This document shows, one piece after another, positions 35,685 through 62,728 of a stretch of DNA of 64,000 bases (its first letter is position 1; every line of letters begins with the position of its first letter). The position numbers and the translations under genes are program-made. The notes under the pieces were generated by a model, which saw nothing but the letters and a program-made list of their open reading frames with translations, was not told the DNA's origin and did no database searches. The stretch is from Chloroflexota bacterium (lineage in GTDB: Bacteria; Chloroflexota; Anaerolineae; 4572-78): assembly GCA_011192195.1 (NCBI GenBank), contig DUEH01000003.1, forward strand, positions 3,734 to 67,733. The letters are read 5' to 3'.

Positions 35685-35720
35685 CGAATGACGAATGACG
35701 AATGACAAATGACAAATGAC
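35665..35720. repeat. Tandem heptamer array (GAATGAC)n, 8 units, unpaired
   Basis: gaatgat, gaatgac x5, aaatgac x2. It contains the stop codon of the upstream gene (35682-35684) and the ATG of the SNF2 gene (35709). Confidence 0.9.
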
Positions 35721-38003
35721 CAACTCGAATGGCTGCCTCTCTCTGTTCCGCCGCAGCCAAAAGAGACGCAAAGCGAATTTTTTTGCCCGCACTGCAACAA
35801 GGCGGCGCCGGTAAACGCGGATACCTGTCCCCACTGCGGGCGACCGCTCATCCTTGCGGCGGGTTTGACGGAAGAAGCGCTGCCAGAGATTGCGTTGCTG
35901 GAACGCCAGCTTGACATAGCGCCGCCTCCTGAAGACTGGTTTAGCGGACGCGGCCTTGATACCCCGGCGATGTATGATCTGCGCCTGCAAGCGGAACGCC
36001 TGTACGTCACCGGCGGTTTTGAGCGTCTTATTTGCCTGGACGACATCAACATTGATCACTACCAGTACCAACTGGAGGCGGCGCAGCGCGCGCTGCGCGA
36101 TATGGGCGGGCGCGCTCTGCTGGCCGACGAAGTGGGGCTGGGAAAAACCATCGAAGCGGGCATTGTGATGAAAGAATTGATCGAGCGCGGTTTGGCGCAG
36201 ACCGTCCTCATCATCGTTCCGGCATCGCTTACCTGGCAGTGGCAAGAAGAAATGGCGGCCAAATTTTATGAAGATTTCCTTGTTCTGGAAAAACTATCCC
36301 AACTTTCCGCCCCAAACTCCCTGCCGCCAAAAGCTTGTCGCTGGATAATTTCCTACAGCCGCGCCCGATCCTCTGCCTGGGCAGAGCGCTTGCTGGCCTT
36401 TGAATATGATCTGCTAATTGTAGACGAAGCGCATAAACTCAAAAATCATCGCAGTAAATCTTATCGCTTTGTGGACCAAATTCGTAAGCGATACGTTCTG
36501 ATGTTAAGCGCCACCCCCGTTCACAATAACCTGCTGGAACTGTATAACCTGATCACCATCCTGCGCCCCGGCCACTTGGGAACGCGCCGCGCCTTTGCGC
36601 GTGATTTTATTGCCACGCCCACCGCTTTGGTCAAGCGTCGCGCTTACCGGCGCACTATCTACAGCCGACCGTCTGTTCACGCTTATTTACGCAAAAACCG
36701 GCAGGCGCGGCAGGAATATCGACAAAAGGGCGACGAGGCATTTCGGATTGTGGCGCGTACGGAAAGCCTGGATGAATTTTTGGCTGTTTTTTTGCCCAAA
36801 GCCGATGCGCAACCTAAAGCAGCCATCGAAGAAATCCGCAGTCTGATGCCGGAGGGCTACGATGTGGTGGAATTTGAAGGGGTTGAGTGGCGAAGCTGGT
36901 ATCGTCGCCGGATAGACTTTGTGTGTCGCCTGAGATTGCGCCCAAAAGCAAAGCGTCCCGAACCCAGCCGCCCTGACCCCAGGCGTCGCCTTAGGCCCCA
37001 AAATCCGGCCCTTGTACGCGCCTTGCTGCGCGAAGTGATGATCCGCAACCGGCGCAGCAGCGTGGGCGTCCGTTTTCCGCCCCGCGAAGCCGCTATCTAT
37101 CATCTCACACTTTCGCCGCCTGAGCGCAAGTTGTACAACGATGTGACCGCTTACATTCGCGAAGAATTACGCAATGTCCAGCAGCTTCCGTCGGGTAAGC
37201 GGCCTGCGGGCGGCGTGTTGCAGCTAAGATTGATGACCTTGCAAAAGCAGCTTGCTTCAAGCCCGCAAGCCGCGGTTCAAGGGCTGGAAAAGTTGACTGC
37301 CGGACAGAACGATGATCGGCTGAACGATTATCTGGCTTTGGCGCGCAGCATTGAACAAGGCCGCAAAGTAAAAGCGGTGCAGACCATTTTAGAGCAATAC
37401 CCGCATAAAACCCTTATCTTCACCGATTATCTGGCCTCTATGCGCGCCCTGAATGCAACGCTAACCGCCTCCGGCTTTGAGACAACGCTGTTTCACGGCG
37501 GCTTGTCCGCTTATGAACGGATTGAGGCGGTGCGGGAATTTCGTAACTCAGCGCAGGTGATGATCAGTCTGCGCTCCGGCGGCGAAGGGCATAATCTGCA
37601 ATTTTGCCGCCAGATGATTAACTTTGATCTGCCCTGGAATCCAATGATCATCGAACAGCGCATCGGGCGCATCCATCGCTTGGGGCAAAAACGAAAAGTC
37701 AGAATTTTCAACCTGTCTGTCGCCAACACCATCGAAGCCTACATTCTGGAGCTGCTGGCGAATAAAATTCGGATGTTTGAGCTGGTCATTGGCGAACTCG
37801 ATCTGATTTTAGGCGAACTGGCGGGTCAACGCAGTTTTGAGAGCTATCTTCAAGAAGCCTGGGTGGGCAGCCAATCCGAAGCCGAGTTGCTGCAAAAAAT
37901 TGTCGAACTGGAAAAAATCATTACCGGAGCCAGAGCTACTTACACTCAAATACGCTCCACGTCAGATGAATTATCAGATATTTTGGGCGGTGCAGAATCC
38001 TGA
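35709..38003 (+). CDS. SNF2/RapA-like helicase with an N-terminal zinc ribbon and an Arg-rich insertion
   Basis: 'CPHCNKAAPVNADTCPHCG'. Motif I 'ADEVGLGKT', motif II 'DLLIVDEAHKLKN', motif III 'LSATPVHN'. Helicase-C 'LPWNPMIIEQRIGRIHRLGQ'. A basic segment of about 130 aa (nt ~36612-37004) lies between the lobes. Confidence 0.9.
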   Translation: MTNDQLEWLPLSVPPQPKETQSEFFCPHCNKAAPVNADTCPHCGRPLILAAGLTEEALPEIALLERQLDIAPPPEDWFSGRGLDTPAMYDLRLQAERLYVTGGFERLICLDDINIDHYQYQLEAAQRALRDMGGRALLADEVGLGKTIEAGIVMKELIERGLAQTVLIIVPASLTWQWQEEMAAKFYEDFLVLEKLSQLSAPNSLPPKACRWIISYSRARSSAWAERLLAFEYDLLIVDEAHKLKNHRSKSYRFVDQIRKRYVLMLSATPVHNNLLELYNLITILRPGHLGTRRAFARDFIATPTALVKRRAYRRTIYSRPSVHAYLRKNRQARQEYRQKGDEAFRIVARTESLDEFLAVFLPKADAQPKAAIEEIRSLMPEGYDVVEFEGVEWRSWYRRRIDFVCRLRLRPKAKRPEPSRPDPRRRLRPQNPALVRALLREVMIRNRRSSVGVRFPPREAAIYHLTLSPPERKLYNDVTAYIREELRNVQQLPSGKRPAGGVLQLRLMTLQKQLASSPQAAVQGLEKLTAGQNDDRLNDYLALARSIEQGRKVKAVQTILEQYPHKTLIFTDYLASMRALNATLTASGFETTLFHGGLSAYERIEAVREFRNSAQVMISLRSGGEGHNLQFCRQMINFDLPWNPMIIEQRIGRIHRLGQKRKVRIFNLSVANTIEAYILELLANKIRMFELVIGELDLILGELAGQRSFESYLQEAWVGSQSEAELLQKIVELEKIITGARATYTQIRSTSDELSDILGGAES

Positions 38004-38006
38004 ATT

Positions 38007-38088
38007 GATTTTGGATTTACGATTGGTTCTTATGCGTAGCCTTAATCGTAAATCCAAAATCGTAAATCCAAAATCGTAAATCGTAAAT
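38007..38088. repeat. Imperfect hairpin with (CGTAAAT)/(CGTAAATCCAAAAT)n arms
   Basis: Left arm is gattttggatttacgattgg (38007-38026). Right arm is ttaatcgtaaatccaaaatcgtaaatccaaaatcgtaaatcgtaaat (38042-38088). The last unit supplies the ATG at 38087. Confidence 0.85.
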
Positions 38089-39397
38089 GATTATGAAAAC
38101 CTTTGCCACATCTTTTTTTAGCCACTTTGGGGCGAAAGCGCTGCCCTCTGAAACAGATATTCTGGTCGTTTTACCGCCGGACCTGGAACAGGTTTTTGGC
38201 AAACCGCGTCTTTATCTGACCTTTGCCAATGAAGACCCGGCCCAGCCGCGCGAGCTATCGCCCAATGAAGACCTGTTGGTTTATGGCAGTCGTACCTTTG
38301 ACCGGATGCTTGCGTTGCTTGAGGGGCGCGGCGCGACAACGCATTTGCAGCTACCCATTCGCCAGCCCACCGAACTTGATTTGCGGCTCCCCTTTGCCAA
38401 CGCTAAAGCGACGCTGGTAGAAGACGATTACCAACAAAGCGTAGAACCTTTCTACGTGTTTCACTTCCGGGCAACGTACATCTGGGCGGAAAAGGAAGAG
38501 GTTTTCATCACCATCACGCTGGATGGCGCGGGCGCGCAACATCCCCACCGCAGCGAGTTGCTGGGCCGGGGCAAGGTATTTGGCGCGCCGGATGAAAGCG
38601 AAGCGCGAAAGATTGACGCGGCGCTTTTACGTCAGCAGTTTGAACGCGCTCAGAAAATTGCCCAGGCGCAGGTTGCTGAACGCGCCGATGCTCTGGAAGA
38701 GATCATCAAGACGCGCTTGCGGCAAATTCTGGCGCGTTTGAAGCGATTTTATGGGCGATTGATGGCAGAAATAACCAGCGACAACCCGGCCCGAAACGAG
38801 GCGGCGCGGGCTGATTTGGAAGCCGACTTACAACGCAAACAGGCCGATGAGTTGGAGCGGCATCGGTTGCGAATACAGCTTGCGCCGGTGGGCTACGCCG
38901 TGATGCTGGTTCCCTTTATCGAGCATCGTTTGAGCTTGAGCTGCGGCCAACAGACCAGCCGCCTGACCCTGCGCCGCGACTTGCACACCGGCTGGGTGGA
39001 AACTTTTTCCTGTCAGCCGGAAATTGAATCTATCACAGATCTGGCTTTTTCCTCATTCAAAGATCGTTTTCGGGCGCAGGGGCGTTTTGCCGAACTGTGC
39101 GCGGAAAATGCGCTGCTCTGCCGGGAAGACGCGCTGCACAGCGTTTTGGCCGTCGCCGGAACGAAGGTAGAAGCGCCCGACGCGCCGGAGCAGGTTTGCC
39201 GAGACGCGCAGCGTTACATCTGGCGGCGAGTTGAGGCTGCTCGATGGGTTATTTATCTGGGACAGCGCAGAGGAAGCAAGGCTTTGTCGCCTGTCTTGGG
39301 GCGTTTGCTGGTGATGCTGGATCAGGAGGGGAACGTGATCAAACGGCGGAAAGTGGGGGCGGTGAGCCGGTTGTTGGGGAGAGTTTTCAAGAGATAA
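38087..39397 (+). CDS. Hypothetical protein, YqhG-like partner of the SNF2 helicase (tentative)
   Basis: 436-aa ORF 83 nt downstream of the helicase. N-terminal 'FFSHFGAKALPSETDILVVLPPDLEQVFGKPRLYLTF' and a central coiled-coil recall the Bacillus YqhG family. This is from memory and not verified. Confidence 0.55.
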   Translation: MIMKTFATSFFSHFGAKALPSETDILVVLPPDLEQVFGKPRLYLTFANEDPAQPRELSPNEDLLVYGSRTFDRMLALLEGRGATTHLQLPIRQPTELDLRLPFANAKATLVEDDYQQSVEPFYVFHFRATYIWAEKEEVFITITLDGAGAQHPHRSELLGRGKVFGAPDESEARKIDAALLRQQFERAQKIAQAQVAERADALEEIIKTRLRQILARLKRFYGRLMAEITSDNPARNEAARADLEADLQRKQADELERHRLRIQLAPVGYAVMLVPFIEHRLSLSCGQQTSRLTLRRDLHTGWVETFSCQPEIESITDLAFSSFKDRFRAQGRFAELCAENALLCREDALHSVLAVAGTKVEAPDAPEQVCRDAQRYIWRRVEAARWVIYLGQRRGSKALSPVLGRLLVMLDQEGNVIKRRKVGAVSRLLGRVFKR

Positions 39398-40030: not shown

Positions 40031-41527
40031 CTAAGAATTCTCCGTTAAGGCCAGAAAGCCTTGGTACGCTTCATCCCAGGCGGCGGTATCTTGCGGCAGG
40101 TATTCTTGTACCGGGAAAGAGCGCTTGATAATGGCGCGCCCCTCTGCCAGCGAAGAAATTTCACCCACGGCCAGCATTTGCAGCAAAATATTCCCCAGCG
40201 CCGTCGCTTCGATGGGGCCGGTTACAACGCGCTTGCCGGTGGCATTGGCAGCAAATTGATTGAGCAGCTTGTTCCGCGCGCCGCCGCCCACAATGTGGAT
40301 GACTTCAATGGCCGAACCGGTCATCCCCTCCAGCTTTTCCACGCTCCAGCGATATTTCAAGGCCAGACTTTCCAGCGCCGCGCGGACGATGCTTCCTGTG
40401 CTTGGGGGGATGGTCTGTTCTGTACGGGTGCAGTAGGCGCTGATTCTGGCGGGCATATTACCCGGTGCAAGAAAGTCGTTATCTTCCGGGTTGACCAAAC
40501 AAGCCAGGGGGGGCGCATCGGCGGCCAGTTGGGTCAGTTTGTCGTAGGAATAGGCGTGACCTTCTTTTTTCCAGATGCGTTTACATTCCTGAACCAGCCA
40601 CAATCCCATAATATTTTTCAATAAGCGAATGGTGTTTTGTACGCCGCCTTCATTGGTAAAATTATAAGCCAACGATTGCTCATTGATAATGGGCGCGGGT
40701 GTTTCTACCCCCATCAGCGACCACGTACCCGAGCTGAGGTAGGCAAAGCGCCCCGCATCCTCTGCCGATGCCGGCACGGCGGCAACCGCGCTGGCGGTAT
40801 CGTGCGCGCCGGGGGCAATGACCGGGACGCGCTCATTCAACCCCAACTCTTCAACAATGGCGGGCAGCACCGTCCCCAGTTTTGCGCCCGGGCGGATAAG
40901 TGATGGGAAGATATCGGTGGGCAGGCCCAACTTTTTCAGCAGCGGCGCAGCCCAGATATTGTTTTGCATATCAAACATCTGGCTGGTGCTGGCGATGGTG
41001 TATTCGTTGGCTTTTTGGCCGGTGAACCAGTAGTTGAAGAGGTCGGGCATAAAAAGGAGCGTATTGGCAATTTGCAGCGCGGGGTCGTTTTGCTGCGCCA
41101 TTGCAAATAGCTGAAAAAGGGTATTGAGCTGCATAAACTGGATGCCCGTTTGGGCGAATATCTCTTCACGGGAGACAAGTTCAAAGACTTTTTCAAGCAT
41201 CCCGTTAGTGCGGCTGTCTCGGTAATGGTAAGGGTTGCCGATGAGGTTTCCCGCGCTGTCCAGCAAGCCGAAATCTACGCCCCAGGTATCAATACCCAGG
41301 GCCGCAAGCTGAATGCCGCGACCTTTGACTGCTTTTGCCAGACCGTTTTTCATTTCCTGAAACAGACGCAGCGTGTCCCAGTGCAGGCTGCCGCTCACCC
41401 GTACCGGGCCGTTGGGGAAGCGGCTGATCTCTTCCAGCGATAATTTCTCGCCGTCAAAACGCCCCACCAGCGCCCGACCGCTTTCCGCGCCTAAGTCCAG
41501 AGCCAGGAAGTTTTTTGTTTTAGCCAT
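40031..41527 (-). CDS. rhaB: Rhamnulokinase
   Basis: Strong collinear resemblance to RhaB: 'LALDLGAESGR', 'IDTWGVDFGLLD', 'YRDSRTNG', 'GIQFMQLNTLFQL', 'YLSSGTWSLMG', 'IHIVGGGARNKLLNQ', 'GPIEATALGN'. Start chosen at 'MAKTKNF' with RBS agaggag. Confidence 0.9.
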   Translation of the reverse strand: MAKTKNFLALDLGAESGRALVGRFDGEKLSLEEISRFPNGPVRVSGSLHWDTLRLFQEMKNGLAKAVKGRGIQLAALGIDTWGVDFGLLDSAGNLIGNPYHYRDSRTNGMLEKVFELVSREEIFAQTGIQFMQLNTLFQLFAMAQQNDPALQIANTLLFMPDLFNYWFTGQKANEYTIASTSQMFDMQNNIWAAPLLKKLGLPTDIFPSLIRPGAKLGTVLPAIVEELGLNERVPVIAPGAHDTASAVAAVPASAEDAGRFAYLSSGTWSLMGVETPAPIINEQSLAYNFTNEGGVQNTIRLLKNIMGLWLVQECKRIWKKEGHAYSYDKLTQLAADAPPLACLVNPEDNDFLAPGNMPARISAYCTRTEQTIPPSTGSIVRAALESLALKYRWSVEKLEGMTGSAIEVIHIVGGGARNKLLNQFAANATGKRVVTGPIEATALGNILLQMLAVGEISSLAEGRAIIKRSFPVQEYLPQDTAAWDEAYQGFLALTENS

Positions 41528-41539
41528 AGCAGTCTCCTC

Positions 41540-41590
41540 TGAAAACAGGCGAATGTGCGAATGGCGAACAGCGAATAGAACCAATTTTCA
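41540..41590 (-). repeat. Clamped leader module: TGAAAAT - (GCGAATG)n array - GTTTTCA, directly 5' of the SD
   Basis: On the coding strand: tgaaaat (41590-41584), a heptamer run (41578-41549), gttttca (41546-41540), then agaggag and the ATG at 41527. Confidence 0.75.
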
Positions 41591-41781
41591 TCCGCTGTGG
41601 TGCGCCACAGGCTCATGATAACTCCTTCCGGAATGGGGATTAAACAACTGTCACATTTGGGAAATTGGAGATTGGGAGATTAGGAGATTATCAGCCTGCA
41701 ATCTCCGGCGAAATGAGACGCTCATTTAATTTTTGTTCCTTGGCTATCAGTTTTTAGCTGATGGCTGATAGCTGAACGCTT

Positions 41782-42399
41782 CTACCACTTGCTATAAGAA
41801 TCGCTGTGCCGGCGATACTCGATGAGCTTTTCGCCCAGAATTTCCGCTTCAAAAATAATGTCGCTCACTTCTTCTAATGCAGATGCCCATTGGTAGGCAT
41901 CTTCCAGCGTTTGACCGATGGCAAAGCTGCCATGTCCGCGTTGCATAACAATTTTATAGCCGCGCAGCGCTTCCGCAACAGTGTCAGCCATTTCTTGCGA
42001 ACCGGAAGCGTACTCTACCGAGACAACGGGGATTTTGCGCAGCAGATAAGAGCCTTCGTTATCAATAGGAATAATCTCGTCCCGTGAAAGGCTCAGGGTG
42101 ATGGCGGTGCGCGGATGGTTATGAATAATTGCCAGTGCGGCGGTTTGGCGGTAGATCTCCCGATGCACAATCAGTTCAGTGCTGGCAAGCGCTATGCCGC
42201 TGTCTTTGCCGTGCAGGCTGGTAATAACCAGATCAGAGGGTTTCAAACGTCCCAACTGCGCGCCGCGTCGCTTGATGATAATTTTATCGCCAATACGCGC
42301 GCTCATATTGCCGCCGTGTGAGCTGGTCAAGCCGGTAATGAAAATATCCCGCCCAATATCGCGGAATTGCTCGTAGAGGCGGGGGTCTATTTTTGACAT
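41782..42399 (-). CDS. Class II aldolase/adducin-domain protein (candidate rhamnulose-1-phosphate aldolase)
   Basis: 205 aa. 'SSHGGNMSAR' and 'HREIY...IIHNHP' are Zn-ligand His motifs of the FucA/RhaD/MtnB fold. It sits between rhaB and the AOR. Confidence 0.8.
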   Translation of the reverse strand: MSKIDPRLYEQFRDIGRDIFITGLTSSHGGNMSARIGDKIIIKRRGAQLGRLKPSDLVITSLHGKDSGIALASTELIVHREIYRQTAALAIIHNHPRTAITLSLSRDEIIPIDNEGSYLLRKIPVVSVEYASGSQEMADTVAEALRGYKIVMQRGHGSFAIGQTLEDAYQWASALEEVSDIIFEAEILGEKLIEYRRHSDSYSKW

Positions 42400-42420
42400 A
42401 ATGTTAATCTCCTGAGGGAA

Positions 42421-42493
42421 GGCAGTAGACGGTAGACAGTAGACAGGGAAAACTTTTCCCCGTCTACTTGTCTACTGTTCTACCGTCTACCGC
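42421..42493. repeat. Hairpin with (GTAGACR)n heptamer arms
   Basis: Arms are ggcagtagacggtagacagtagacagggaaaa and ttttccccgtctacttgtctactgttctaccgtctaccgc. It fills the AOR-stop to aldolase-RBS spacer. Confidence 0.9.
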
Positions 42494-42494
42494 T

Positions 42495-44279
42495 TTATAC
42501 CAAATCGTCCAGTTCAAGTTCTTGCAACTTCTCCGGGGTGGGAACGCCGTTTTTGTCCCAGCCGCGGAAGGAATAATATTCTTCCAGCATCGGGGCGAGA
42601 TTGACGGTGTATCCGGCGCTGGGGCCTTCGGCAACTTCTACGTCGAGCAATCGCTTTGGCAAGGTGTCATCGGCGGCGGTGAAGCCTTCGCGCAGGTTGT
42701 AGAGGCGCTCCAGGTTCCAGGTGCGTTCGCCTGCCTTCATCAGGTCGTCGGCGGTGAAGGCTTCGCCGGTGATGGCGGAAAGGATGCGGGCGAAGAAATC
42801 TTCGGCAACGGCCATATTGGTGAATTTGCAGATGACCAGGCTATCAATCATAGCGGCGGCGTCTTGATGCACCGATACGATGCCTGCCTTGCCCTGATAA
42901 GCCAGACGGTCAATCAATCGCGGCAGGGCTAATACTTCTGGCCCCAGCATATTGCCGCGCATGTGGCACGCGCCTCGGTTAGATGTGGCAAAAAGCAAGC
43001 CTTGTCCTTGCATACCGCGCGGGTCGTAGGCGGGAATTTCCAGCTTTTTCACGCTCATCGAAAGTTCCGGCACGCCGCGCGCTTCGGCAAAGCGGTAGCT
43101 GCCGTCGGAGAGACCCGCTGCGCCCAACCCTTGCCGGTAGGCGATGTTTTGAATGGTATCCAGCAGCAAGTCTGCGCGACCAAAGCGCAGGCCGCCTTCA
43201 ATGACGCCGCGTTCGGTCATTTCCATTGCGCAACCAATGGCATTCCCTACAGAGATGGTATCCAGCCCCAAATCGTTGCACAAACGATTGGCGTCGGCAA
43301 TGGTTTCCAGATTGTCTATGCCGCACTGCGCGCCAAAACTCCAGACGCTTTCGTATTCGGGACCTTCGCCTTCCCCTTTTTCTGTTTTGGTAATGCGCGT
43401 GCAGGCGATGGGACAAGCCCAGCAGGCTTGATTTTTGACCAGGATTTGCTCGGTGATGGCTTCGCCGCTGATCGCTTCTGCGCCTTCAAATTGCGATTGC
43501 TGGAAGTTGCGGGTGGGCAGCGCGCCAATGGCGTTGACCAGATTCATCACCACCGACGTGCCAAACTCCGGCAGCGCTTGCGAGGTGAGCGGGCTGGCTT
43601 TGAGCAGTTTGCCCGTTTCATATAGCATAAATTTGAATTGGTCTTTATCGGCGGGTTTGTTGCGTTCTTTGCCTTCTACCACAATGGCTTTCAGGTTTTT
43701 ACTGCCCATCACAGCGCCGGGTCCGCCGCGAGCCAACGCGCGTTCGCCATCGTTCATAATTGCCGCCATCAGCGAAAGGTTTTCACCGGCGGGTCCAATG
43801 CACAGCACGTTGCGTTTGTTGTTGTTTTGCCCCAGCGCCTGAGTGGTTTGGCTGACGCTTTTACCCCACAAGTTTTGCGCATTTTTCAGTTCTACGCCCT
43901 TGGGGGTAATTTCAATCATTACGGGATTTTTGGCTTTGCCGCGCACAATCATCACGTCGTAGCCGGTGCGTTTGAACTGCATCCCCCACCAGCCGCCGCT
44001 GTTGGCGTCCAGGATTGTGCCGGTGAGCGGGCTTTTGGTTGTTACCGAAAAGCGGTTGCTGGTTTGTATGCCGCTGGCGGTAAAAGGACCGGCGGTAAAT
44101 ATTAACGCATTTTCCATCGAAAGCGGGTCAACGCCGGGTCCAACTAAATCCCACAGCAACCGCGCGCCCAAACCGCGTCCACCCAAAAAGAGCCGCGCCA
44201 TTTTTTGGTCGAGAGGACGAGTCTCGATGGCGCCGGTCTCTAGGTTAATGTCAAGTATTTTTCCTGACCATCCATGCAT
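42495..44279 (-). CDS. Aldehyde:ferredoxin oxidoreductase (tungsto/molybdopterin AOR family)
   Basis: 594 aa. N-terminal 'GWSGKILDINLETGAIETRPL...FLGGRGLGARLLWD', a 4Fe-4S Cys region 'QACWACPIACTR', and the AOR C-terminal domains. Confidence 0.9.
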   Translation of the reverse strand: MHGWSGKILDINLETGAIETRPLDQKMARLFLGGRGLGARLLWDLVGPGVDPLSMENALIFTAGPFTASGIQTSNRFSVTTKSPLTGTILDANSGGWWGMQFKRTGYDVMIVRGKAKNPVMIEITPKGVELKNAQNLWGKSVSQTTQALGQNNNKRNVLCIGPAGENLSLMAAIMNDGERALARGGPGAVMGSKNLKAIVVEGKERNKPADKDQFKFMLYETGKLLKASPLTSQALPEFGTSVVMNLVNAIGALPTRNFQQSQFEGAEAISGEAITEQILVKNQACWACPIACTRITKTEKGEGEGPEYESVWSFGAQCGIDNLETIADANRLCNDLGLDTISVGNAIGCAMEMTERGVIEGGLRFGRADLLLDTIQNIAYRQGLGAAGLSDGSYRFAEARGVPELSMSVKKLEIPAYDPRGMQGQGLLFATSNRGACHMRGNMLGPEVLALPRLIDRLAYQGKAGIVSVHQDAAAMIDSLVICKFTNMAVAEDFFARILSAITGEAFTADDLMKAGERTWNLERLYNLREGFTAADDTLPKRLLDVEVAEGPSAGYTVNLAPMLEEYYSFRGWDKNGVPTPEKLQELELDDLV

Positions 44280-44294
44280 AGTGTTTGTCTCCTT

Positions 44295-44355
44295 TGAAAA
44301 TAAGCTGTCAGTTGTCAGCTATCAGCTTTCAGCGGTCAGCTTTACTGAATTTTCA
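44295..44355 (-). repeat. Clamped leader module: TGAAAAT - (AGCTRWC)n array - ATTTTCA, directly 5' of the SD
   Basis: On the coding strand: tgaaaat (44355-44349), a heptamer run (44345-44301), attttca (44301-44295), then aaggaga and the ATG at 44279. Confidence 0.8.
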
Positions 44356-44516
44356 TCCCCTGTGGTGAAACCGGTTTAATGAAAACTCCCTTGAAAACAG
44401 ACCGCCGACGGTGCAAACTGCCCTAATGCGGGCTATTTGAGACCGCCGACCGCCGAATTGCTCGTTCCCACGCTCCTGCGTGGAAACGCATACCATTTCA
44501 TTTGGATGCGTTTCAT

Positions 44517-45158
44517 TTACATTTGCATCAATGCCAGAGCGTCGTTGGCGGCGGCGGAGGCGTCCGGCGAGAATCGGTCTGCGCCGACGCTTTCGGCAAA
44601 GGCGCCGGTGACGGGCGCGCCGCCGATCATCACTTTTACCTGCTCGCGCAATCCCGCCTCTTTCAGCGCCTCGATGACCGTTTTCATCGAGGTCATCGTG
44701 GTAGTGAGCAGGGCGCTCATCCCCAGAATTTCCGGTTGGTGTTCGCGGATGGCTTCCACAAATTTGGCGTGAGGAACGTCAGTGCCCAGGTCAATCACTT
44801 CAAAGCCTTTGCCTTCCATCATCATCCCCACCAGGTTTTTGCCGATGTCGTGCAGGTCGCCTTGAACGGTTCCCAAGATGACTTTGCCGATGGGTTCCAC
44901 GCCGCCTTCCACTAATTTTGGGCGCAGAATGGTCAGTCCGGCTTTCATGGCTCTGGCGGCAATGAGCATTTCCGGCACAAAGATTTCCTGCGCTTCGTAC
45001 AGAGCGCCCACTTCGCCCATTGCTTCGATCATCCCCTGATTGAGAATGACCGAGGGATCGCCGCCCAAATCCAGCGCTTCCTGAACGCCTTCGCTGGCTC
45101 CCGGCGCGTCGCCATCAAGGATGCTTTCATAAATTTTGTCCAGTACGTCGTCTAGCAT
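44517..45158 (-). CDS. Corrinoid (B12-binding) protein, MtaC/MtbC-like
   Basis: 213 aa. N-terminal helical cap domain and a Rossmann B12-binding domain with 'GDLHDIGKN' (DxHxxG) and 'GMSALLTTT', '...VMIGGAP'. Confidence 0.9.
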   Translation of the reverse strand: MLDDVLDKIYESILDGDAPGASEGVQEALDLGGDPSVILNQGMIEAMGEVGALYEAQEIFVPEMLIAARAMKAGLTILRPKLVEGGVEPIGKVILGTVQGDLHDIGKNLVGMMMEGKGFEVIDLGTDVPHAKFVEAIREHQPEILGMSALLTTTMTSMKTVIEALKEAGLREQVKVMIGGAPVTGAFAESVGADRFSPDASAAANDALALMQM

Positions 45159-45204
45159 AGGTGTTTTCTCCGGTAATAAATTGCGTTTTGAGTTTCAGGT
45201 ATCT

Positions 45205-46443
45205 TTACTGAAATCCGCCGCTGGGGTCAGCCAAACCGCGTTCAGATTGAATTTTTTCTTCATAGCCGCTGGCTCGATAGCCGGCGATGGGGTGGCTGGG
45301 GACCCCCATTTCCCGGCGAATTTGCGCCAGCAAGGGGCGCACATCGCTGCGGTAGGCGTTGTTGAGAATGTCATGCGCGCCCAGTATGTCGCCGTTGCGC
45401 TGCGCTTCGGCCAGTTGTTTTCTGGGAACCAGCAGGGCTTTGGCGTAGGATTCCTGACAGTTTAGCACGGAGTAGATGATGGGCGCCATCTTGCCCTCGA
45501 TGTTGTGACACTGGTCAAGCATATAAGCAACGTTTTGAGCGGTGGCGCTGGTAATTTCGTCGTCGCTCAGTTCGGCTCCCACCAGTTCGTTGTAAATGAG
45601 GAACAGTTCGTAGGGGTTGACGCTGCCCACGATCAGATCGTCATCGGCGTATTTGCGGTTGTTGAAGTGGAAGCCGCCCAGTCGCCCCTCGTCCAGCAGA
45701 AAAGCCACAATTTGTTCTATGTTGACGCCCTGGGCGTGGTGTCCCAGGTCTACCAGAACCTGCGCTTGCGGGCCAAGTTTTAGCGCCCAGGCGTAGGCGG
45801 TTCCCCAATCGGGGATGTCGGTGCTGTAGAAGGCCGGCTCAAAGAATTTATACTCAATGAGCATACGGCTGTTTGCGGGCAGGTGTTGGTAGATGGTGCG
45901 CAATCCGGCCTCAAAGCGACGTTTGCGCCCGCGCAGGCTGTCTTGCCCGGCGTAGTTGGTGCCGTCGGCAAACCACAGGCTCAGGGTGTCGCTTTTGAAT
46001 TTGGTCATCAAATTGCAACATTCCAGAATGTGATCCAGCGCCCGTTCCTGAATAGCGGGGTCAGGGTTGCCCAGCGAGCCTAATTTGTACTCGTCGTCCT
46101 GAAAAACATTGGGATTGACCGCGCCAATACGAATGCCCTGCGCTTCGGCGTACTGGCACATAGCGTCGTAGTCGTCGTCCGCCGGGCGATCCCAGGGAAT
46201 GTGGACAGCGACGGTAGGGGTGATGCCGGTCATTTTGTGAACCATTGCCGCATCATCGAGCTTTTGTTGGGTGGTAGTAGCAGCGCCGGGCCAGGCAAAG
46301 GCCTTGAAGCGGGTGCCGCTGTTGGCGTAACCCCAACTGGGGGTTTCTATGTGTTGGTTTTTCAAGGCGGTTTTGACTTGCTCAATATCGATGCCAAGAT
46401 TGCTCAGGTCTTCTACCAGTAGGTCATAAGCTTTGTTTGACAT
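45205..46443 (-). CDS. rhaI: L-rhamnose isomerase (Pseudomonas stutzeri / xylose-isomerase-like TIM-barrel type)
   Basis: Collinear with that family: '[12 protein letters not shown]', 'HIPWD', '[11 protein letters not shown]', 'VLVDLGHHA', '[15 protein letters not shown]', 'YRASGYEEK'. Start at 'MSNKAYDLL' with RBS aaggaga. Confidence 0.9.
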
Positions 46444-46464
46444 TTTGCGTCTCCTTCTGAGGGC

Positions 46465-46513
46465 GGGTCTGTCTCTCGTTCCCACGCTCTGCGTGGGAAC
46501 AAGCGGCAGACCC
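46465..46513. repeat. Hairpin of the GTTCCCACGC...GCGTGGGAAC family
   Basis: Perfect inner stem gttcccacgc/gcgtgggaac (46478-46500) within outer gggtctg/cagaccc. Relatives lie at 8039-8058, 31340-31374 and 44464-44487. Confidence 0.9.
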
Positions 46514-46516
46514 CTG

Positions 46517-47617
46517 CTATTTATACACTCCGTGTTTTTTCACGGCGGCGATGAAGGCTTCAACGTTCTCCATAGAGACGTCAGACTGCACAATATGGGC
46601 CGGCGAACACATGTAGCCGCCGCCCGCGCCCAGAACGCGGATCTTTTCGGCCACGTTGGTCTCTATTTCTTCCGGCGTTCCTTGCGGCAACAAGTATTGC
46701 TGGTCAATAGCGCCCCAGAAAGAGAGTTTGTCGCCCAGACGAGATTTCAGGGCGTCCGGTTCGTGGCCGGGTACGTTGGGCTGAACCGGGTTGAAGACAT
46801 CAACGCCAATCTCAACCAGGTCTTCCAGAATAGGGGCCACCGCGCCGTCGGTGTGGTACATGATCATCACATTGGGGTTGACCGATTTTAGTTCCTGGAA
46901 TACTTCGGCATGGCGCGGCTTGAACAGGTTACGCCACATTTTGGGAGAAATCAACATGCCGTTTTGAGCGCCAAAATCATCGCCGGCCCATACGCCGTCA
47001 ACGCCCAGTTCAACCAGTTGTTTGCCAATTCCAATGCTGAATTCCTTGACCTTGTCCAGAAGCGCCTCGATGTAAGCTTCGCCTACGGCCATATCTATCA
47101 TAAATTTTTCCAGCCCCACCAGATGCCACGACATTTCAAAAATTGTCAACTCTAAATCGCCGATGATGAAGTAATTCTTTTTGTACATCTCGGCGTACTT
47201 TTTGGCGTCGTCAAAACGACCTTTCGCGTAGGGATCGGGGAAAGGGTGATTGCTTACATCTTGCACGGTGGTTGCGTTGCGCAAGGGGGCCTCTATGGTT
47301 TGCATATACAAGGGACCTTGCTCCATCAACATCCCAAATTCGTTGATGATTCGGCCTTCCTGGGGAACCGGATGGCTGTAGCCGCGCGGCAGGCTGCCGC
47401 CAACTACCACGCAATCGCTGCCCATTGCCACGCGCAATTCATTGGCTGAAATGCGATAGGTGACATCCTCAAAATATGAGGTGGTGTAGTGGATGGGAAT
47501 GTTATATTTTTTGCCAAAATCGTCGGTTAGTTTACGGCATAAATCAAACTGAAGCGGCACCCGATCAGGGGTTCCGCTGCGGCGCAGGGCGGTGAGTACA
47601 CGTTCTTTTGAGTTCAT
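46517..47617 (-). CDS. Uroporphyrinogen-decarboxylase (URO-D) family protein, MtaA/CmuA-like methyltransferase candidate
   Basis: 366 aa. '[17 protein letters not shown]' N-terminus and TIM-barrel URO-D-like layout. It has 'MYHTDG' at the position where MtaA-type enzymes carry the H-x-C zinc ligands. Confidence 0.8.
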
Positions 47618-47628
47618 TTCAAAACCTC

Positions 47629-47952
47629 CTAATCCAAATGAAAGACCTCTTCCAGTTCAATCATATTTTCATCGGCGTGAGCGCCGCCCAGGTCTTCAAA
47701 GTAGGGGGCCATAAAGTCTTGCCATTTGGCGTTGATGTCTTCTTTAGTCATCCCTTCCAGCGATGCCTGAAAACTTTCTTCGGCTTCAAAGTAGCCAAAG
47801 AGCAGGCCGTCTGCGCGCATAAAAAGGGAGTAGTTGCGCCAGCCGGTTCGCCGTAAAGCGTCCAGCATTTCCGGCCATACGGTTTCATGATGTTTTTTGT
47901 ATTCTTCTATTTTGTCTTTTTTGACTTTAAGAAGAAAACCGATGCGTTTCAT
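47629..47952 (-). CDS. rhaM: L-rhamnose mutarotase
   Basis: 107 aa. 'EEYKKHHETVWPEMLDALRRTGWRNYSLF...LLFGYFE' matches RhaM closely. Confidence 0.85.
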   Translation of the reverse strand: MKRIGFLLKVKKDKIEEYKKHHETVWPEMLDALRRTGWRNYSLFMRADGLLFGYFEAEESFQASLEGMTKEDINAKWQDFMAPYFEDLGGAHADENMIELEEVFHLD

Positions 47953-47957
47953 GTTCT

Positions 47958-48297
47958 TTATCCTTGCTGAATTTTGCAGGGCGTTTGGTGCAGCTTTTCC
48001 GCGCCTGTTCCGGTAATCAGGTAGCCGTCTTCAATTCGCAGGCCGCCCCACGGGGTGCTGAATAGAGGAATGTCAACCGATATGATCATATTCTCCGGGC
48101 ATCAGGACACAAACCGGCTCGAAATGAACCGGGAAATCGGCCAGCCACCGGGCGTGCGCCGGGCCAAATACTGCCCGATCATCGGCACAGGCTACCAGGA
48201 AATCAAGGTCATGGCGGGCCATCATTTTCTGTACTTTTTGCCACCGTTTACGATATTCCGCGACGGGTATTGTTGGTGTTGAGCCTTCAACTGCCAT
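47958..48297 (-). pseudogene. M24-family (Xaa-Pro peptidase/creatinase-like) gene remnant with an internal deletion
   Basis: An N-terminal 74 codons (creatinase-N-like '...RWQKVQKMMARHDLDFLVACADDR') end at a TGA. One frame over, '...GGLRIEDGYLITGTGAEKLHQTP...*' is a typical M24 C-terminus. The ~250-aa catalytic core is missing. Confidence 0.65.
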
Positions 48298-48327
48298 TTG
48301 AATTTTCGCGTCCTTTGGTTCGTTTTA

Positions 48328-48380
48328 CTGGTTCCCAAACTGATCCTTCGGTTTCGCTCAGGACAAGGTTTGGGAACCAG
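48328..48380. repeat. CCCAAAC...GTTTGGG interspersed element, copy 2
   Basis: ctggttcccaaactgatccttcggtttcgctcaggacaaggtttgggaaccag followed by T6, 12 nt from the binding-protein stop. Confidence 0.9.
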
Positions 48381-48391
48381 TTTTTTACAAA

Positions 48392-51300
48392 CTACTCGGC
48401 AGCCGCTTCAACGTTATCTGCATTGTAAACGGTGAAGGGACCCATCAGCACGCGCAGTCCTGCATCGCGGGTGGGGTCTTTCTCGATGGTGTAGGTTCCC
48501 ATCCGACCGGCCTCAAAGCTGACGCCTTCTGCGGCTTCCATCTGACCCGAAGCGATCAGGTAGGTGGTGTAGTAGGTCAGGTAGCCCAGGTCAACAAAGC
48601 TCCACAAGGCGAACTCGGGGGCGCAGCCGTTGAGGGTGTAGGATACCATCTCGGCGGGTAAACCAAGACCGCTAACCTTCACCTCGTCGCACAAGCCTTC
48701 GTCCTGCATAGCTTTGGCGGCGGAGGCAATGCCGACAGTTGTCGGGGCCATAATCAAGCCCAGGTCGGGGTATTTGTCAACCAGCGCCAGGGCCTGGTTG
48801 TAGCTGTCTTCGGACTGGTCGTTACCGTAAACAATGTCGACCAGTTCCAGCGCGTCATATTTGGAATCTTTGAGCGCTTCTTCCATAGCGGCAATCCAGG
48901 CGTTCTGGTTGGAGGCGTCGGGGGAGGCGGACAACACCGCAAACTGGCCGCCGTCATCGCCCAAAATGCTCAGGGCCATATCGGCCATAACTACGCCGGT
49001 TTCATCAAAATCTACCTGAGCAATGAAAACCTGCTCACCCTCGGCGGAGGGAATGGGAGAGTCCCAGGTAACAACGGCAGCGCCGGAGTCGAGCGCGGCT
49101 TGCGCAGCCGGAGCAATCTGGTCGCCGGCGTTGTTGGAGATCATGATCCCGTCCTGCCCTTGAGTGGCGGCGGTAGTGACAATCTCGATCTGACCTGCCA
49201 CACTGTTTTCGGGGGTCGGGCCAAGAAATTCCAGGTTGCCGGGATTGTCCAGTTCAGCGTGAGCTTCTTGCGCGCCGTTATTGGCCTGGTCAAAGACCAG
49301 AATACCCAGGAACTTGGGTAGCAGCACCATATTCAGTTCGACGCCCGGTTCAGGAACAACCACATCACCGGTATCTGCCGTTGCGGACTCGACTTCTGCG
49401 CCACCGGCGGCGGCTTCAACATTGTCTGCTGTGTAAACAGTGAAGGGTCCCATCAGCACGCGCAGACCGGCATCGCGGGTGGGGTCTTTCTCGATGGTGT
49501 AAGCGCCCATTCGACCCGCTTCAAAGCTGACGCCTTCTGCGGCTTCCATCTGTCCGGTAGCAATCAGGTAGGTGGTGTAGTAGGTCAGGTAGCCCAGGTC
49601 AACAAAGCTCCACAGGGCGAACTCGGGGGCGCAGCCGTTGAGGGTGTAAGATACCATCTCGGCGGGCAGACCCAAACCGCTGGTTTTTACTTCGTCGCAC
49701 AAGCCTTCGTCTTGCATAGCTTTGGCGGCGGCGGCGATACCAACGGTGGTCGGGGCCATAATCAGGCCCAGGTCGGGATATTTGTCAACCAGCGCCAGGG
49801 CCTGGTTGTAGCTGTCTTCGGACTGGTCGTTGCCGTAGACAATATCGACCAATTCCAGCGCATCATACTTGGAATCTTTAAGCGCCTCTTCCATAGCGGC
49901 AATCCAGGCGTTCTGGTTAGCCGCATCCGGTGAAGCGGACAGCACGGCAAATTGGCCGCCGCCATCACCCAGAATGCTCAGGGCCATATCGGCCATTACC
50001 ACGCCAGTTTCGTCAAAGTCTACTTGCGCGATGAATACCTGCTCGCCCTCGGCAGAGGGAATGGGGGAGTCCCAGGTAACAACAGCCGCGCCGGCATCCA
50101 TTGCCGCTTGCGCTGCCGGAGCAATTTGGTCGCCGGCGTTGTTGGAAATCATAATCCCGTCCATTTCCTGAGTGGCGGCGGTGGTAACAATTTCAATCTG
50201 TCCGGCTACGCTGTTTTCGGGGGTCGGGCCAAGGAATTGCAGTTCGCCGGGGTTGCCCAGTTCGGCGTGGGCTTCTTGCGCGCCTTCGTTGGCTTGGTCA
50301 AAGACCAGAATACCAAGGAATTTGGGGAGCAGGACCAGGTTGGCTTCCATGCCGGTTTCCGGCGTTACGGTTTCGCCACTTGCCGCGCCGGAATCTGCCG
50401 GTTCTGCCGCGGCTACTTCCGCGCCGCCGGCGGCGGCTTCAACATTATCTGCTGTGTAAATGGTGAAGGGCCCCATCAGCACGCGCAGACCTGCGTCGCG
50501 GGTGGGGTCTTTCTCGATGGTGTAGCTTCCCATTCGACCTGCTTCAAAAGTGACGCCTTCTTCGGCCTCAATTGCGCCGGTAGCCAGTTGGTTGGCAACG
50601 TAGTAGCTGAGGTAGCCCAGGTCAACAAAGCTCCACAGAGCGAACTCTGGGGCGCAGCCGTTGAGGGTGTAAGACATCATTTCGGCGGGCAGGCCAAGAC
50701 CGCTGACTTTTACATCGTCGCACAAGCCTTCATCCTGCATTGCTTTGGAGGCGGCGGCAATGCCGACAGTTGTCGGAGCCATAATCAGACCCAGGTCGGG
50801 GTATTTGTCGACCAGCGCCAGGGCCTGGTTGTAGCTGTCTTCGGACTGGTCATTACCGTAGACAATGTCGACCAATTCCAGCGCGTTATACTTGGAATCT
50901 TTGAGCGCTTCTTCCATAGCGGCAATCCAGGCGTTCTGGTTAGCTGCATCCGGCGAAGCAGAGAGAACGGCAAATTGACCGCCGTCATCTCCCAGGATGC
51001 TCAGAGCCATATCGGCCATAACCACGCCGGTTTCATCAAAATCTACCTGAGCCACAAAAACCTGCTCGCCTTCGGCGGAGGGAATGGGGGAATCCCAGGT
51101 GACAACGGTCATGCCGGCATCCATTGCCGCTTGGGCGGCGGGGACAATCTGGTCGCCGGCGTTGTTGGAAATCATAATAGCGTCAACGCCCTGGGTGGCG
51201 GCGGTGGTCACAATTTCAATCTGACCGGCTACGCTGTTTTCGGGGGTCGGCCCAAGAAATTCCAGGTTGTCGGGGTTGCCGATTTCGCCGGCAGCTTCCA

Positions 51301-51707: not shown

Positions 51708-51753
51708 GAGGGCACTTCATCTGCATTGATTCTCAATAGGCTGCTCCTTTTTT

Positions 51754-62716: not shown

Positions 62717-62728
62717 AATGGTTTTCTC

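Follow-up and report, generated by a model that had tools for sequence, protein, structure and literature searches.

An aldehyde:ferredoxin oxidoreductase (AOR) gene that adjoins an aldolase gene within a Chloroflexota rhamnose operon raises the question of how the lactaldehyde released at the end of rhamnose breakdown is disposed of. In E. coli, the end steps of rhamnose and fucose catabolism are carried out by RhaD or FucA, and then by AldA (aerobic) or FucO (anaerobic). A sequence-only reading of the window, by which we mean the whole 64-kb stretch of DNA analysed here, had proposed that the AOR takes the place of such dehydrogenases and reductases, oxidising lactaldehyde to lactate with ferredoxin as acceptor. 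The gene order on which that proposal was built, AOR followed by the aldolase (hereafter ALDO) and then rhaB, was recovered, with all three open reading frames on the minus strand within one rhamnose operon. The features of the locus are:

40031-41527 (open reading frame to 41584), minus strand: rhamnulokinase RhaB; best match TIGR02627, 500.6 bits, below the cutoff of 527.95.
41782-42399, minus strand: ALDO, a short (205 aa), FucA-like class II (metal-dependent) aldolase; Pfam Aldolase_II, NF006413.
42400-42494, minus strand: 95-nt intergenic hairpin of 7-8-nt tandem repeats; minimum-free-energy folding and TRF.
42495-44279, minus strand: AOR-family aldehyde:ferredoxin oxidoreductase, 594 aa, single-subunit WorL/AOR type; AFOR_N and AFOR_C, full-length.
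44517-45158, minus strand: corrinoid (B12-binding) methyltransferase partner protein; B12-binding and B12-binding_2 domains.
45205-46485, minus strand: L-rhamnose isomerase, RhaI type; TIGR02635, 574 bits, over the cutoff of 531.
46517-47617, minus strand: URO-D-family protein, an MtaA/CmuA-like methyltransferase candidate; PF01208, with TIGR01463 at 77.6, under its cutoff.
47629-47952, minus strand: L-rhamnose mutarotase RhaM; PF05336, with TIGR02625 at 69 bits, under its cutoff of 99.6.
48392-51589, minus strand: rhamnose ABC substrate-binding protein, 1065 aa, with three tandem RhaS-type domains.
51787-55389, minus strand: rhamnose transporter, two ABC permeases and a double-ATPase subunit; BPD_transp_2 twice, ABC_tran twice.
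55415-56302, minus strand: DeoR-family regulator; HTH_DeoR and DeoRC.
56299-58680, minus strand: three proteins with a possible accessory or competing part in sugar oxidation and aldehyde handling, namely a FabG-like SDR, an MBL-fold lactonase-like protein and an Lra1-like SDR.
59228-63727, beyond the SDR and MBL-fold genes: acetoin-dehydrogenase-like E1/E2 set (E1a/E1b/E2).

The phosphorylative rhamnose operon is complete, with mutarotase, isomerase, kinase, transporter and regulator encoded together, and every gene from the DeoR regulator through rhaB lies on the same strand. RhaI and the RhaS-type binding protein (three Peripla_BP_4 stretches; TIGR02637, 798 bits) score over curated cutoffs, while RhaB and RhaM are best matches that fall below theirs. 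The real start of RhaB is probably the ATG at 41527 (MAKTKNFLALDLGAESGR). At the other end of the operon, the start of the DeoR gene overlaps the stop of the upstream SDR gene by 4 nt (translational coupling). The two SDRs, of 252 aa each, are encoded separately, and the best matches listed for them are models of the FabG or Lra1 type rather than TIGR02632; the one encoded at 57922-58680 scores 314.6 with NF053807, an L-rhamnose 1-dehydrogenase model with a cutoff of 400. The locus had been described as free of any NAD-dependent aldehyde dehydrogenase, RhaEW fusion or FucO-like reductase, and our scan agrees: among 44 open reading frames of the window, no PF00171 aldehyde dehydrogenase, no PF00465 Fe-ADH and no RhaEW fusion was found, nor any second aldolase in the operon.

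Two further genes are interleaved with the rha genes and were missed by the sequence-only reading. The corrinoid protein carries a DxHxxG motif and scores 208 with TIGR02370 (cutoff 215), and its companion, the URO-D-like methyltransferase candidate, was checked for the MtaA HxC zinc motif, which is absent. Homologues of the URO-D-like protein adjoin rhaM or rhamnose ABC genes in five of the seven contexts looked up.

The window AOR is identical in sequence to an NCBI protein from a Chloroflexi MAG, and is covered by PF02730 at residues 6-203 (E = 7e-76) and by PF01314 at residues 222-590 (E = 4e-140). Its nearest solved structures are WorL of the A. mobile WorABCSL system (9mqx, 612 bits), C. 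autoethanogenum AOR (9g7j, 597 bits) and P. furiosus AOR (1aor, 575 bits), to which it is 47-50% identical, whereas the more distant subfamilies score lower (FOR 349 bits, WOR5 179, BamB 158) and the GAPOR_Arch model gives a weak partial NCBIfam match of 48 bits. Length, two-domain architecture, and cluster and active-site motifs are common to all four proteins: a CxxCxxxC motif is found from residue 286 as CWACPIAC, and EGPEYE, GACHMRG and DSLVICKF line up with their counterparts in the three structures. Following the roles in P. furiosus AOR, we take the CxxCxxxC motif and a distal Cys to be the [4Fe-4S] ligands, and the Glu and His to lie near the metal. These comparisons assign the enzyme to the AOR sensu stricto group rather than to FOR, GAPOR, WOR5 or BamB. 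No WorS polyferredoxin, BfuABC or AorA/AorC partner genes adjoin it. As indirect support for a bound W- or Mo-bis-pyranopterin cofactor, a MoaD/SAMP-like gene stands beside the AOR in 28 of the 72 related loci described below; none was found within the window, and a search for Moco/Tuco riboswitches returned none.

ALDO had been called a class II aldolase that acts on rhamnulose-1-phosphate, and its place in class II is confirmed. The protein matches PF00596 (E = 6e-35) and aligns with FucA structures, the closest being Thermus thermophilus FucA (2fk5, 130 bits), deposited as fuculose-1-phosphate aldolase. Homologues keep the histidines of HxH and GHG together with the catalytic Glu (H93, H95, H156 and E75 are invariant or nearly so), and the phosphate-site Ser/Thr are also conserved. 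It is FucA-like rather than RhaD-like: it scores 36.8 bits with NF002963 against a cutoff of 170, and has no TIGR02624 among its matches. Nor is it a FucA equivalog (TIGR01086, 48 against 400; NF005302, 61 against 264). Its best curated family is NCBIfam NF006413 ‘aldolase’ (208.3 bits; cutoff 203), a family without a functional name. Annotation pipelines automatically name the protein fuculose-phosphate aldolase.

The spacer between the two genes is exactly 95 nt long and, as had been noticed, is filled by a hairpin: it forms one long structure with a minimum free energy of -49 kcal/mol (z = -7.5 against shuffles), with TRF arrays at 42423-42446 and 42460-42492. Since the 7-8-nt repeats recur in many other intergenic regions of the window, the hairpin represents a genome-wide repeat type and is not specific to this junction; the much shorter gap in orthologous loci (see below) further indicates an insertion particular to the window genome. 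The only Rfam matches were weak ones, to generic hairpin models (miRNA precursors), no U-tract was found downstream of the hairpin, and ALDO has its own AGGAG ribosome-binding site.

A genome survey for AORs at least 60% identical to that of the window yielded 72 species-level loci, of which 64 were evaluable for the downstream gene. ALDO lies downstream of the orthologous AOR, on the same strand, in 63 of these 64 species-level Chloroflexota genomes; the gap is below 400 nt in 59 of them, with a median of 23 nt. Seen from the aldolase side, all 33 metagenomic ALDOs with an identity of at least 60% (33 of 33) have the AOR upstream. The adjacency is thus widely shared by relatives, and the refuting condition named by the sequence-only reading, a pairing confined to this one genome, is clearly rejected. 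In neighbour-joining trees, the ALDO-linked AORs form a monophyletic group (bootstrap 60/60 and 98/100) that leaves out four structurally solved enzymes (the AORs of P. furiosus and C. autoethanogenum, WorL of A. mobile and AorB of A. aromaticum) as well as five unlinked AORs. Within AOR sensu stricto, the window enzyme therefore sits in its own subclade, marked by the adjacent aldolase, with 1aor, 9g7j and 9mqx outside. A more distant pair, in a Synergistota locus (L070; AOR 46% identical), lies beside rhaI, rhaB and an ABC transporter.

The surroundings of the pair point to deoxy-sugar catabolism. Genes for rhamnose or fucose use (rhaB, RhaA/RhaI, rhaM or fucI) lie beside it in 29 of 35 fully flanked loci, and seven loci (L005, L008, L013, L018, L022, L053 and L073) combine rhaB and an isomerase gene with ALDO and no other aldolase. 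In the window and in these seven loci the rha operon is otherwise complete and has no second aldolase, so that ALDO would by context cleave rhamnulose-1-phosphate. LutABC or LarA, identified over NCBIfam cutoffs, come after or near the pair in 16 of the 72 loci, often in the order AOR, ALDO, LutA, LutB, LutC, which points to lactate as the product.

In support of the sequence-only reading, we consider it probable, judging from sequence and gene context, that AOR and ALDO form one conserved two-gene functional cassette, a ferredoxin-dependent equivalent of the RhaE-RhaW fusion placed within a rhamnose uptake and catabolism operon. Most likely, the cassette would split the sugar phosphate and oxidise the toxic lactaldehyde to lactate with ferredoxin, not NAD. 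The RhaS-type ABC system would bring L-rhamnose into the cell, where RhaM, RhaI and RhaB would in turn anomerise, isomerise and phosphorylate it, after which ALDO would cleave L-rhamnulose-1-phosphate to DHAP and L-lactaldehyde. AOR would then convert L-lactaldehyde to L-lactate, with its [4Fe-4S] cluster relaying two electrons to ferredoxin as the presumed acceptor, with tungsten or molybdenum as the presumed metal. In related genomes, LutABC may oxidise the lactate to pyruvate, or LarA may racemise it; the genes for these enzymes are immediately downstream. The reduced ferredoxin could drive the formation of H2 or other reductive steps, which would fit a low-potential anaerobic metabolism. 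Lactaldehyde oxidation in vitro has been reported for E. limosum WOR1, a tungsten AOR-family enzyme (PMC11725836), and in D. kuznetsovii 1,2-propanediol is oxidised via an ADH and an adjacent AOR, with a build-up of lactaldehyde and lactate (PMC13541210). Whereas the reference AORs have been assigned to amino-acid-derived aldehydes, acid reduction or detoxification, the role of the window AOR is suggested by a defined sugar operon.

The proposed chemistry, a class II aldolase followed by conversion of lactaldehyde to lactate, is also that of RhaEW, the bifunctional L-rhamnulose-1-phosphate aldolase/L-lactaldehyde dehydrogenase of Chloroflexus aurantiacus and Bacillus subtilis (Rodionova et al. 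2013, PMC3870299). The two systems share the Chloroflexota operon context, with lactate-utilisation genes in the same loci of related genomes. RhaEW, however, is one polypeptide of ~680 aa with an N-terminal aldolase and a C-terminal, NAD-dependent SDR domain (TIGR02632), whereas AOR-ALDO comprises two polypeptides and its oxidising partner is a pterin/[4Fe-4S] AOR for which ferredoxin is expected. True RhaEW proteins (TIGR02632, 891 bits) are encoded in four of the 72 loci (L040, L051, L056 and L066), in three of them directly upstream of the pair, so that both systems can coexist. RhaD-like aldolases share the locus in 18 of 72 cases and double-aldolase proteins in six; wherever one of these three enzymes is present, ALDO is not needed as the rhamnulose-1-phosphate aldolase. 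The idea that the AOR replaces other routes is consequently too simple: where RhaD-like or RhaEW genes accompany it, the cassette is an alternative module in some lineages. In the operon of the window's lineage the pair supplies the sole aldolase and the sole aldehyde-oxidising candidate, although the 64 kb analysed are part of a genome that may encode a RhaD, AldA or FucO elsewhere. As in E. coli, a class II aldolase would release DHAP and L-lactaldehyde and a dedicated enzyme would dispose of the aldehyde. Unlike in E. coli, the aldolase is a short FucA-like NF006413 protein, not RhaD, and disposal would be oxidative under anoxia, giving reduced ferredoxin, whereas the anaerobic E. coli step uses NADH to make 1,2-propanediol.

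The RhaD-like genes in 18 loci also bear on another explanation, which we regard as improbable: that the pair serves salvage of the DHAP-shunt type and has come to lie in rhamnose operons secondarily, with rhamnulose-1-phosphate cleaved by a RhaD encoded elsewhere. ALDO would then split 5-deoxyribulose-1-phosphate or methylthioribulose-1-phosphate, derived from the SAM by-products 5'-deoxyadenosine and MTA, and AOR would oxidise acetaldehyde or methylthioacetaldehyde. The DHAP shunt for MTA and 5'-deoxyadenosine salvage employs MtnP/MtnK, MtnA and a class II aldolase such as Ald2 or DrdA; in the shunt as described, the aldehyde is reduced or excreted, and no AOR is known to take part. One Firmicutes MAG locus (L061) has the order MTAP-MtnA-AhcY-AOR-ALDO-deaminase, with MTAP, MtnA and AhcY over NCBIfam cutoffs, an AOR of the same clade and an ALDO whose highest score is with NF006413 (257 bits); in this DHAP-shunt context the aldehyde would be one of the two just named. 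Some Chloroflexota pairs lie outside sugar loci, including that of the isolate Anaerolinea thermolimosa (L060), distant ALDO-linked pairs occur in non-sugar contexts (L093 beside a spermidine-synthase-like gene), and ALDO relatives without an AOR are found in housekeeping contexts. Against this, neither the window nor any of the 79 other genome loci contains a homologue of MtnP, MtnA, AhcY or the deaminase; the Chloroflexota pairs are mostly in rhamnose or fucose operons, as the 29 of 35 flanked loci and the 16 with lactate-utilisation genes illustrate, and the otherwise complete rha operons of the window's lineage have no other aldolase.

It is also rather unlikely that the AOR is a broad aldehyde scavenger that shields the cell during aldolase activity, with the bulk of the lactaldehyde going to the upstream SDRs, to the acetoin-dehydrogenase-like E1/E2 enzymes or to FucO/AldA encoded outside the window. 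AOR-family enzymes do have a wide substrate range and have been proposed as detoxifiers (PMC11725836, PMC12318220). Two SDR genes, one coupled to the DeoR gene, and the E1a/E1b/E2 genes lie directly upstream, and an acetoin-dehydrogenase-like complex is predicted to handle the lactaldehyde step in Caldicellulosiruptor (PMC8579813). In rhamnose loci of relatives that have no AOR (L082, L090), the aldolase is accompanied by ADH_N and SDR genes instead. A scavenger, however, would not predict a strict order, so short a median gap and one particular aldolase across more than 60 species, and neither a dedicated AOR subclade nor LutABC/LarA immediately downstream would be expected of it. Furthermore, a set of 125 non-redundant neighbour proteins without other annotation contains no recurring Aldedh or Fe-ADH.

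That ALDO is instead an epimerase, isomerase, decarboxylase or AOR accessory subunit, with the AOR acting on a different aldehyde of the locus, is highly improbable: although epimerases, dehydratases and decarboxylases also belong to the superfamily and several of them match ALDO weakly, although ALDO seems redundant beside RhaD or RhaEW, and although its conserved KRRG motif stands where E. coli FucA has TPTG, its three metal-binding His, catalytic Glu and phosphate-site Ser/Thr are conserved, its nearest solved relative was deposited as an aldolase, and complete rha operons offer no other aldolase candidate.

A more far-reaching version of the preferred cassette reading is, taken as a whole, tentative and rather doubtful. 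ALDO and AOR would be a dedicated, possibly physically coupled pair that channels lactaldehyde, an ancestral AOR-aldolase salvage cassette recruited into 6-deoxyhexose catabolism in Chloroflexota; the AOR clade would have a single physiological substrate, rhamnose and fucose fermentation would yield reduced ferredoxin, and a corrinoid-dependent demethylase (the URO-D-like and corrinoid proteins) acting on O-methylated rhamnose would feed the pathway. No corrinoid-dependent demethylase of an O-methylated sugar was found in the literature searched.

Most bacterial AOR-family enzymes have physiological substrates that are undefined or vaguely ascribed to ‘detoxification’. Here, a monophyletic AOR clade is linked to a single partner enzyme and, for the majority of genomes, to a single pathway, and L-lactaldehyde:ferredoxin oxidoreductase is a candidate assignment for the clade. 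If true, AldA/RhaW, FucO/RhaO and RhaZ would be joined by a fourth way of completing rhamnose and fucose catabolism. It would alter the redox balance of deoxy-sugar fermentation, since lactate and reduced ferredoxin would be made where FucO uses NADH and yields 1,2-propanediol. It would also account for the ‘incomplete’ rhamnose pathways annotated in Anaerolineae-type MAGs, where ALDO receives its automatic fuculose name and no lactaldehyde enzyme is called. Such organisms are plentiful in anaerobic digesters, sediments and soils, habitats in which deoxy sugars from pectin and algae are widespread.

Every gene from 63727 down to 40031 lies on the minus strand. The rhamnose unit in this stretch runs from a DeoR regulator through an ABC ATPase, two permeases, a 1065-aa binding protein and RhaM to a URO-D-like methyltransferase-family protein, RhaI, a corrinoid protein, an aldehyde:ferredoxin oxidoreductase (AOR), a class II aldolase (ALDO) and RhaB. 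The features discussed here are:

41782-42399, minus strand: ALDO, class II aldolase, 205 aa
42495-44279, minus strand: AOR, 594 aa, AFOR_N and AFOR_C domains both full-length
44517-45158, minus strand: corrinoid (B12-binding) protein, DxHxxG motif present
46517-47617, minus strand: URO-D-family methyltransferase-like protein, without the MtaA HxC zinc motif
48392-51589, minus strand: rhamnose ABC substrate-binding protein, 1065 aa, three tandem RhaS-type domains
56299-58680, minus strand: Lra1-like SDR, MBL-fold lactonase-like protein and FabG-like SDR, directly upstream of the DeoR gene
59228-63727, minus strand: acetoin-dehydrogenase-like E1a/E1b/LacI/E2 set, upstream beyond the SDR/MBL genes

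AOR, ALDO and rhaB were all recovered where the sequence-only reading had placed them, and the AOR-ALDO spacer, described there as 95 nt long and filled with hairpin, measures exactly 95 nt and holds one strong hairpin. An annotated protein from a Chloroflexi MAG matches the AOR sequence at every residue. ALDO narrowly exceeds the cutoff of the NCBIfam 'aldolase' model NF006413 and scores far under the cutoffs of the RhaD and FucA equivalog models; it is FucA-like, with T. thermophilus FucA (2fk5) as its nearest structure. The gene after ALDO has rhamnulokinase as its top match, at a score slightly under the curated cutoff, and its translation probably begins at the ATG at 41527. As had been claimed for the locus, neither an NAD-dependent aldehyde dehydrogenase (Aldedh), an iron-dependent alcohol dehydrogenase (Fe-ADH) of the FucO type nor RhaEW, the NAD-dependent RhaE-RhaW aldolase/lactaldehyde dehydrogenase fusion, occurs among the ORFs scanned over the 64-kb window. 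The Zn-ADH at 4784-5827 is part of another sugar operon. Shorter assemblies of this region of the 75.8-kb source contig, found via edge genes, add only transketolase-like genes upstream.

The adjacency of AOR and ALDO is not unique to this genome. Scanning a single genome for each species gave 80 loci (numbered L0xx below); tblastn with the window proteins and clustering of ORFs were used to compare them. An AOR at least 60% identical to that of the window is present in 72, and 64 of these have sufficient downstream sequence to judge; in 63 of the 64, ALDO lies downstream in the same orientation. In 59 loci fewer than 400 nt separate the two genes, and the median gap is 23 nt. The pair extends beyond Chloroflexota to a Firmicutes MAG (L061, AOR 56% identical) and a Synergistota MAG (L070, 46%), while five AORs at 38-45% identity stand without ALDO. 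In a metagenome search starting from ALDO, every one of the 33 evaluable ALDOs with 60% identity or more to that of the window had AOR upstream, as against 6 of 20 more distant ones; the distant ALDOs without AOR lie in housekeeping contexts.

By HMMER score the window AOR is grouped with AOR sensu stricto, with 612 bits for A. mobile WorL (9mqx), 597 for C. autoethanogenum AOR (9g7j) and 575 for P. furiosus AOR (1aor), against 349 for FOR, 179 for WOR5 and 158 for BamB. Its sequence identity is 47-50% to the first three of these enzymes and 44% to AorB, the fourth solved AOR-type enzyme. In neighbour-joining trees, a simple method applied here with few unlinked AORs (five), every ALDO-linked AOR, whichever phylum it comes from, falls into a single clade (bootstrap 60/60 and 98/100) that leaves out four solved reference AORs and the five unlinked ones. 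This points to a dedicated AOR subclade that would have been co-inherited with the aldolase.

The neighbourhoods of the pair place it mostly among genes of deoxy-sugar catabolism: of the 35 loci that reach 5 kb or more in both directions, 29 carry one or more rha or fuc genes. Representatives of the neighbour clusters were named with NCBIfam, giving RhaA, RhaEW and LarA (the latter two above cutoff), MoaD/SAMP-like, LutA, LutB and FucI, together with a RhaD-like aldolase cluster at 160 bits against a cutoff of 170. Within 10 kb of the pair, rhaB occurs in 32 of the 72 loci, RhaA or RhaI in 35, fucI in 9, the RhaD-like aldolase in 18, RhaEW in 4, a double-aldolase protein in 6, LutABC in 11, LarA in 5 and a MoaD-like protein in 28. 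In the closest RhaI-using lineage (the window, L005, L008, L013, L053 and L073), ALDO is the sole aldolase of otherwise complete operons, and likewise in two RhaA-type loci (L018, L022). Another lineage has the order rhaB>RhaD>RhaA>AOR>ALDO(>LutABC), and where LutABC is present the usual arrangement is AOR>ALDO>LutA>LutB>LutC. RhaEW lies immediately upstream of AOR>ALDO in L040, L051 and L056, followed in L040 and L051 by a MoaD-like gene and LarA, and ~8 kb upstream of the pair in L066. Batch Pfam annotation of 125 non-redundant, otherwise unannotated neighbour proteins gave no recurrent Aldedh or Fe-ADH among the top families listed.

Cleavage of rhamnulose-1-P and of fuculose-1-P each yields DHAP and L-lactaldehyde (Rodionova 2013, PMC3870299). 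The best-supported reading is that ALDO would release L-lactaldehyde and AOR would oxidise it to lactate. It is favoured by the strict coupling of an aldolase to an aldehyde-oxidising enzyme, by the position of the pair within deoxy-hexose operons, by lactate-oxidising or lactate-racemising genes directly behind it, and by the lack of another candidate in the window operon. The cassette would be an analogue of RhaE-RhaW, which carries out the same two steps with NAD, whereas AOR and ALDO are two separate polypeptides, of which AOR would putatively use ferredoxin. The interpretation offered in the sequence-only reading, a putative ferredoxin-linked lactaldehyde oxidation, has strong comparative support. 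Where the pair coexists with RhaEW or RhaD, each system could be used under its own redox or oxygen conditions, as AldA and FucO are in E. coli.

Biochemical precedents exist in other settings. E. limosum WOR1 oxidises lactaldehyde in vitro (PMC11725836), and in D. kuznetsovii lactaldehyde and lactate accumulate from 1,2-propanediol via an ADH and the adjacent AOR (PMC13541210). Williams et al. 2022 remark in passing that AORs could detoxify rhamnose-derived lactaldehyde in Lernaellota MAGs (PMC9324843). The reference study of rhamnose pathways mentions neither ferredoxin nor tungsten, and within the literature searched no paper describes an AOR gene as part of a rhamnose operon.

A different role is suggested by the Firmicutes locus L061 (6862-13681), with the order MTAP-MtnA-AhcY-AOR-ALDO-deaminase. 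Here the pair may belong to a salvage cassette of the DHAP-shunt type, in which the AOR substrate would be acetaldehyde or methylthioacetaldehyde; its gene order suggests a ferredoxin-linked DHAP shunt variant for MTA and 5'-deoxyadenosine salvage, of which we know no description. Distant ALDO-linked pairs are also found outside sugar loci. This would fit a salvage cassette of older origin that rhamnose operons took up later, and it also feeds a rival reading in which the window pair would serve salvage. However, no Chloroflexota locus carries Mtn genes, and a search for MTA-salvage genes in the window and the 80 genome loci returned L061 alone.

A second rival assigns the lactaldehyde step to the upstream SDRs and the acetoin-dehydrogenase-like complex, a similar complex having been predicted for this step in Caldicellulosiruptor (PMC8579813). 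The FabG-like SDR stop overlaps the DeoR start, the two genes being translationally coupled, and the Lra1-like SDR scores 315 bits against the L-rhamnose 1-dehydrogenase model, under its cutoff. The upstream SDR, MBL and E1-E2 genes could represent pieces of an oxidative pathway for rhamnose, or else a different way of handling lactaldehyde. A RhaW-like identity of the window SDRs was rejected, their 31-36% identity to RhaEW SDR domains being an ordinary level within the SDR family and their top matches being FabG or Lra1 models. SDR, E2 and E1 neighbours are also seen near AOR-ALDO in L002 and L008, and SDR and E2 follow the rha genes in L082. Rhamnose loci of relatives without AOR-ALDO (L082, 11758-16812; L090, 1199-5916) contain a ~270-aa class II aldolase with a ~445-aa protein without Pfam matches, an ADH_N-containing protein and an SDR, a module that may be one more way of carrying out the aldolase and lactaldehyde steps.

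The spacer hairpin (-49 kcal/mol, z = -7.5) was considered as a specific regulator and rejected. It is built of 7-8-nt tandem repeats, and the same heptamer-repeat palindrome type is scattered over many intergenic regions of the window; because it also has no U-tract and the gap in orthologous loci has a median of only 23 nt, we read it as a genome-wide repeat insertion. Such short arrays, often in inverted pairs that form long hairpins, include 42423-42492, 44303-44341, 41657-41689, 35664-35720, 38044-38088, 51752-51816, and 59108-59152 with 59179-59223; we take them to resemble the STRR-type repeats of filamentous bacteria. Two short arrays also lie in the 254-nt gap from the ALDO stop to the likely rhaB start (41585-41781 region), where a 41-codon ORF (ATG at 41616) with a strong Shine-Dalgarno sequence, in a frame different from that of rhaB, is probably spurious. 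Rfam searches returned no Moco/Tuco riboswitch and no other family, at gathering thresholds over the whole window or at permissive thresholds over 41500-48500, and the hairpin itself gave weak miRNA-precursor-like matches and nothing else. Consensus scans for promoters and terminators gave no more sites than in shuffled sequence. The MoaD-like gene of relatives is absent from the 238-nt gap upstream of the window AOR.

The corrinoid and URO-D-like genes, missing from the sequence-only reading, are interleaved with the rha genes. Chloroflexota commonly carry close homologues (70-83% identity) of the URO-D-like protein, and these adjoin rhaM or rhamnose ABC genes in five of the seven contexts looked up, one of which (L082, 7524-9284) has a corrinoid protein adjacent. 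In L024 (292-3450), a corrinoid protein and an apparent RACE-type activator, recognised by sequence inspection alone, lie upstream of MoaD-AOR-ALDO, and other URO-D clusters recur next to RhaA-AOR-ALDO. The observation also takes in L081, L088, L089 and L090. The two proteins may plausibly form a corrinoid-dependent demethylase for O-methylated rhamnose or other deoxy-sugars; a demethylase of this kind for O-methylated rhamnose was not found in the literature searched.

Tandem-repeated binding proteins such as the triple RhaS-type protein of the window are unusual; two-domain versions (~700 aa) occur in L058, L081 and L088. At 35709-39397 on the plus strand, a SNF2/DrmD-like helicase (764 aa, N-terminal zinc ribbon) is followed by a 436-aa protein without Pfam or NCBIfam match, and these may be a defence-system fragment at the operon border.

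Both the enzyme family and the pathway are known; the arrangement is undescribed in the literature searched, is conserved and has its own AOR clade. We consider the interest moderate to good because this AOR clade would thereby gain a defined physiological role that is directly testable.
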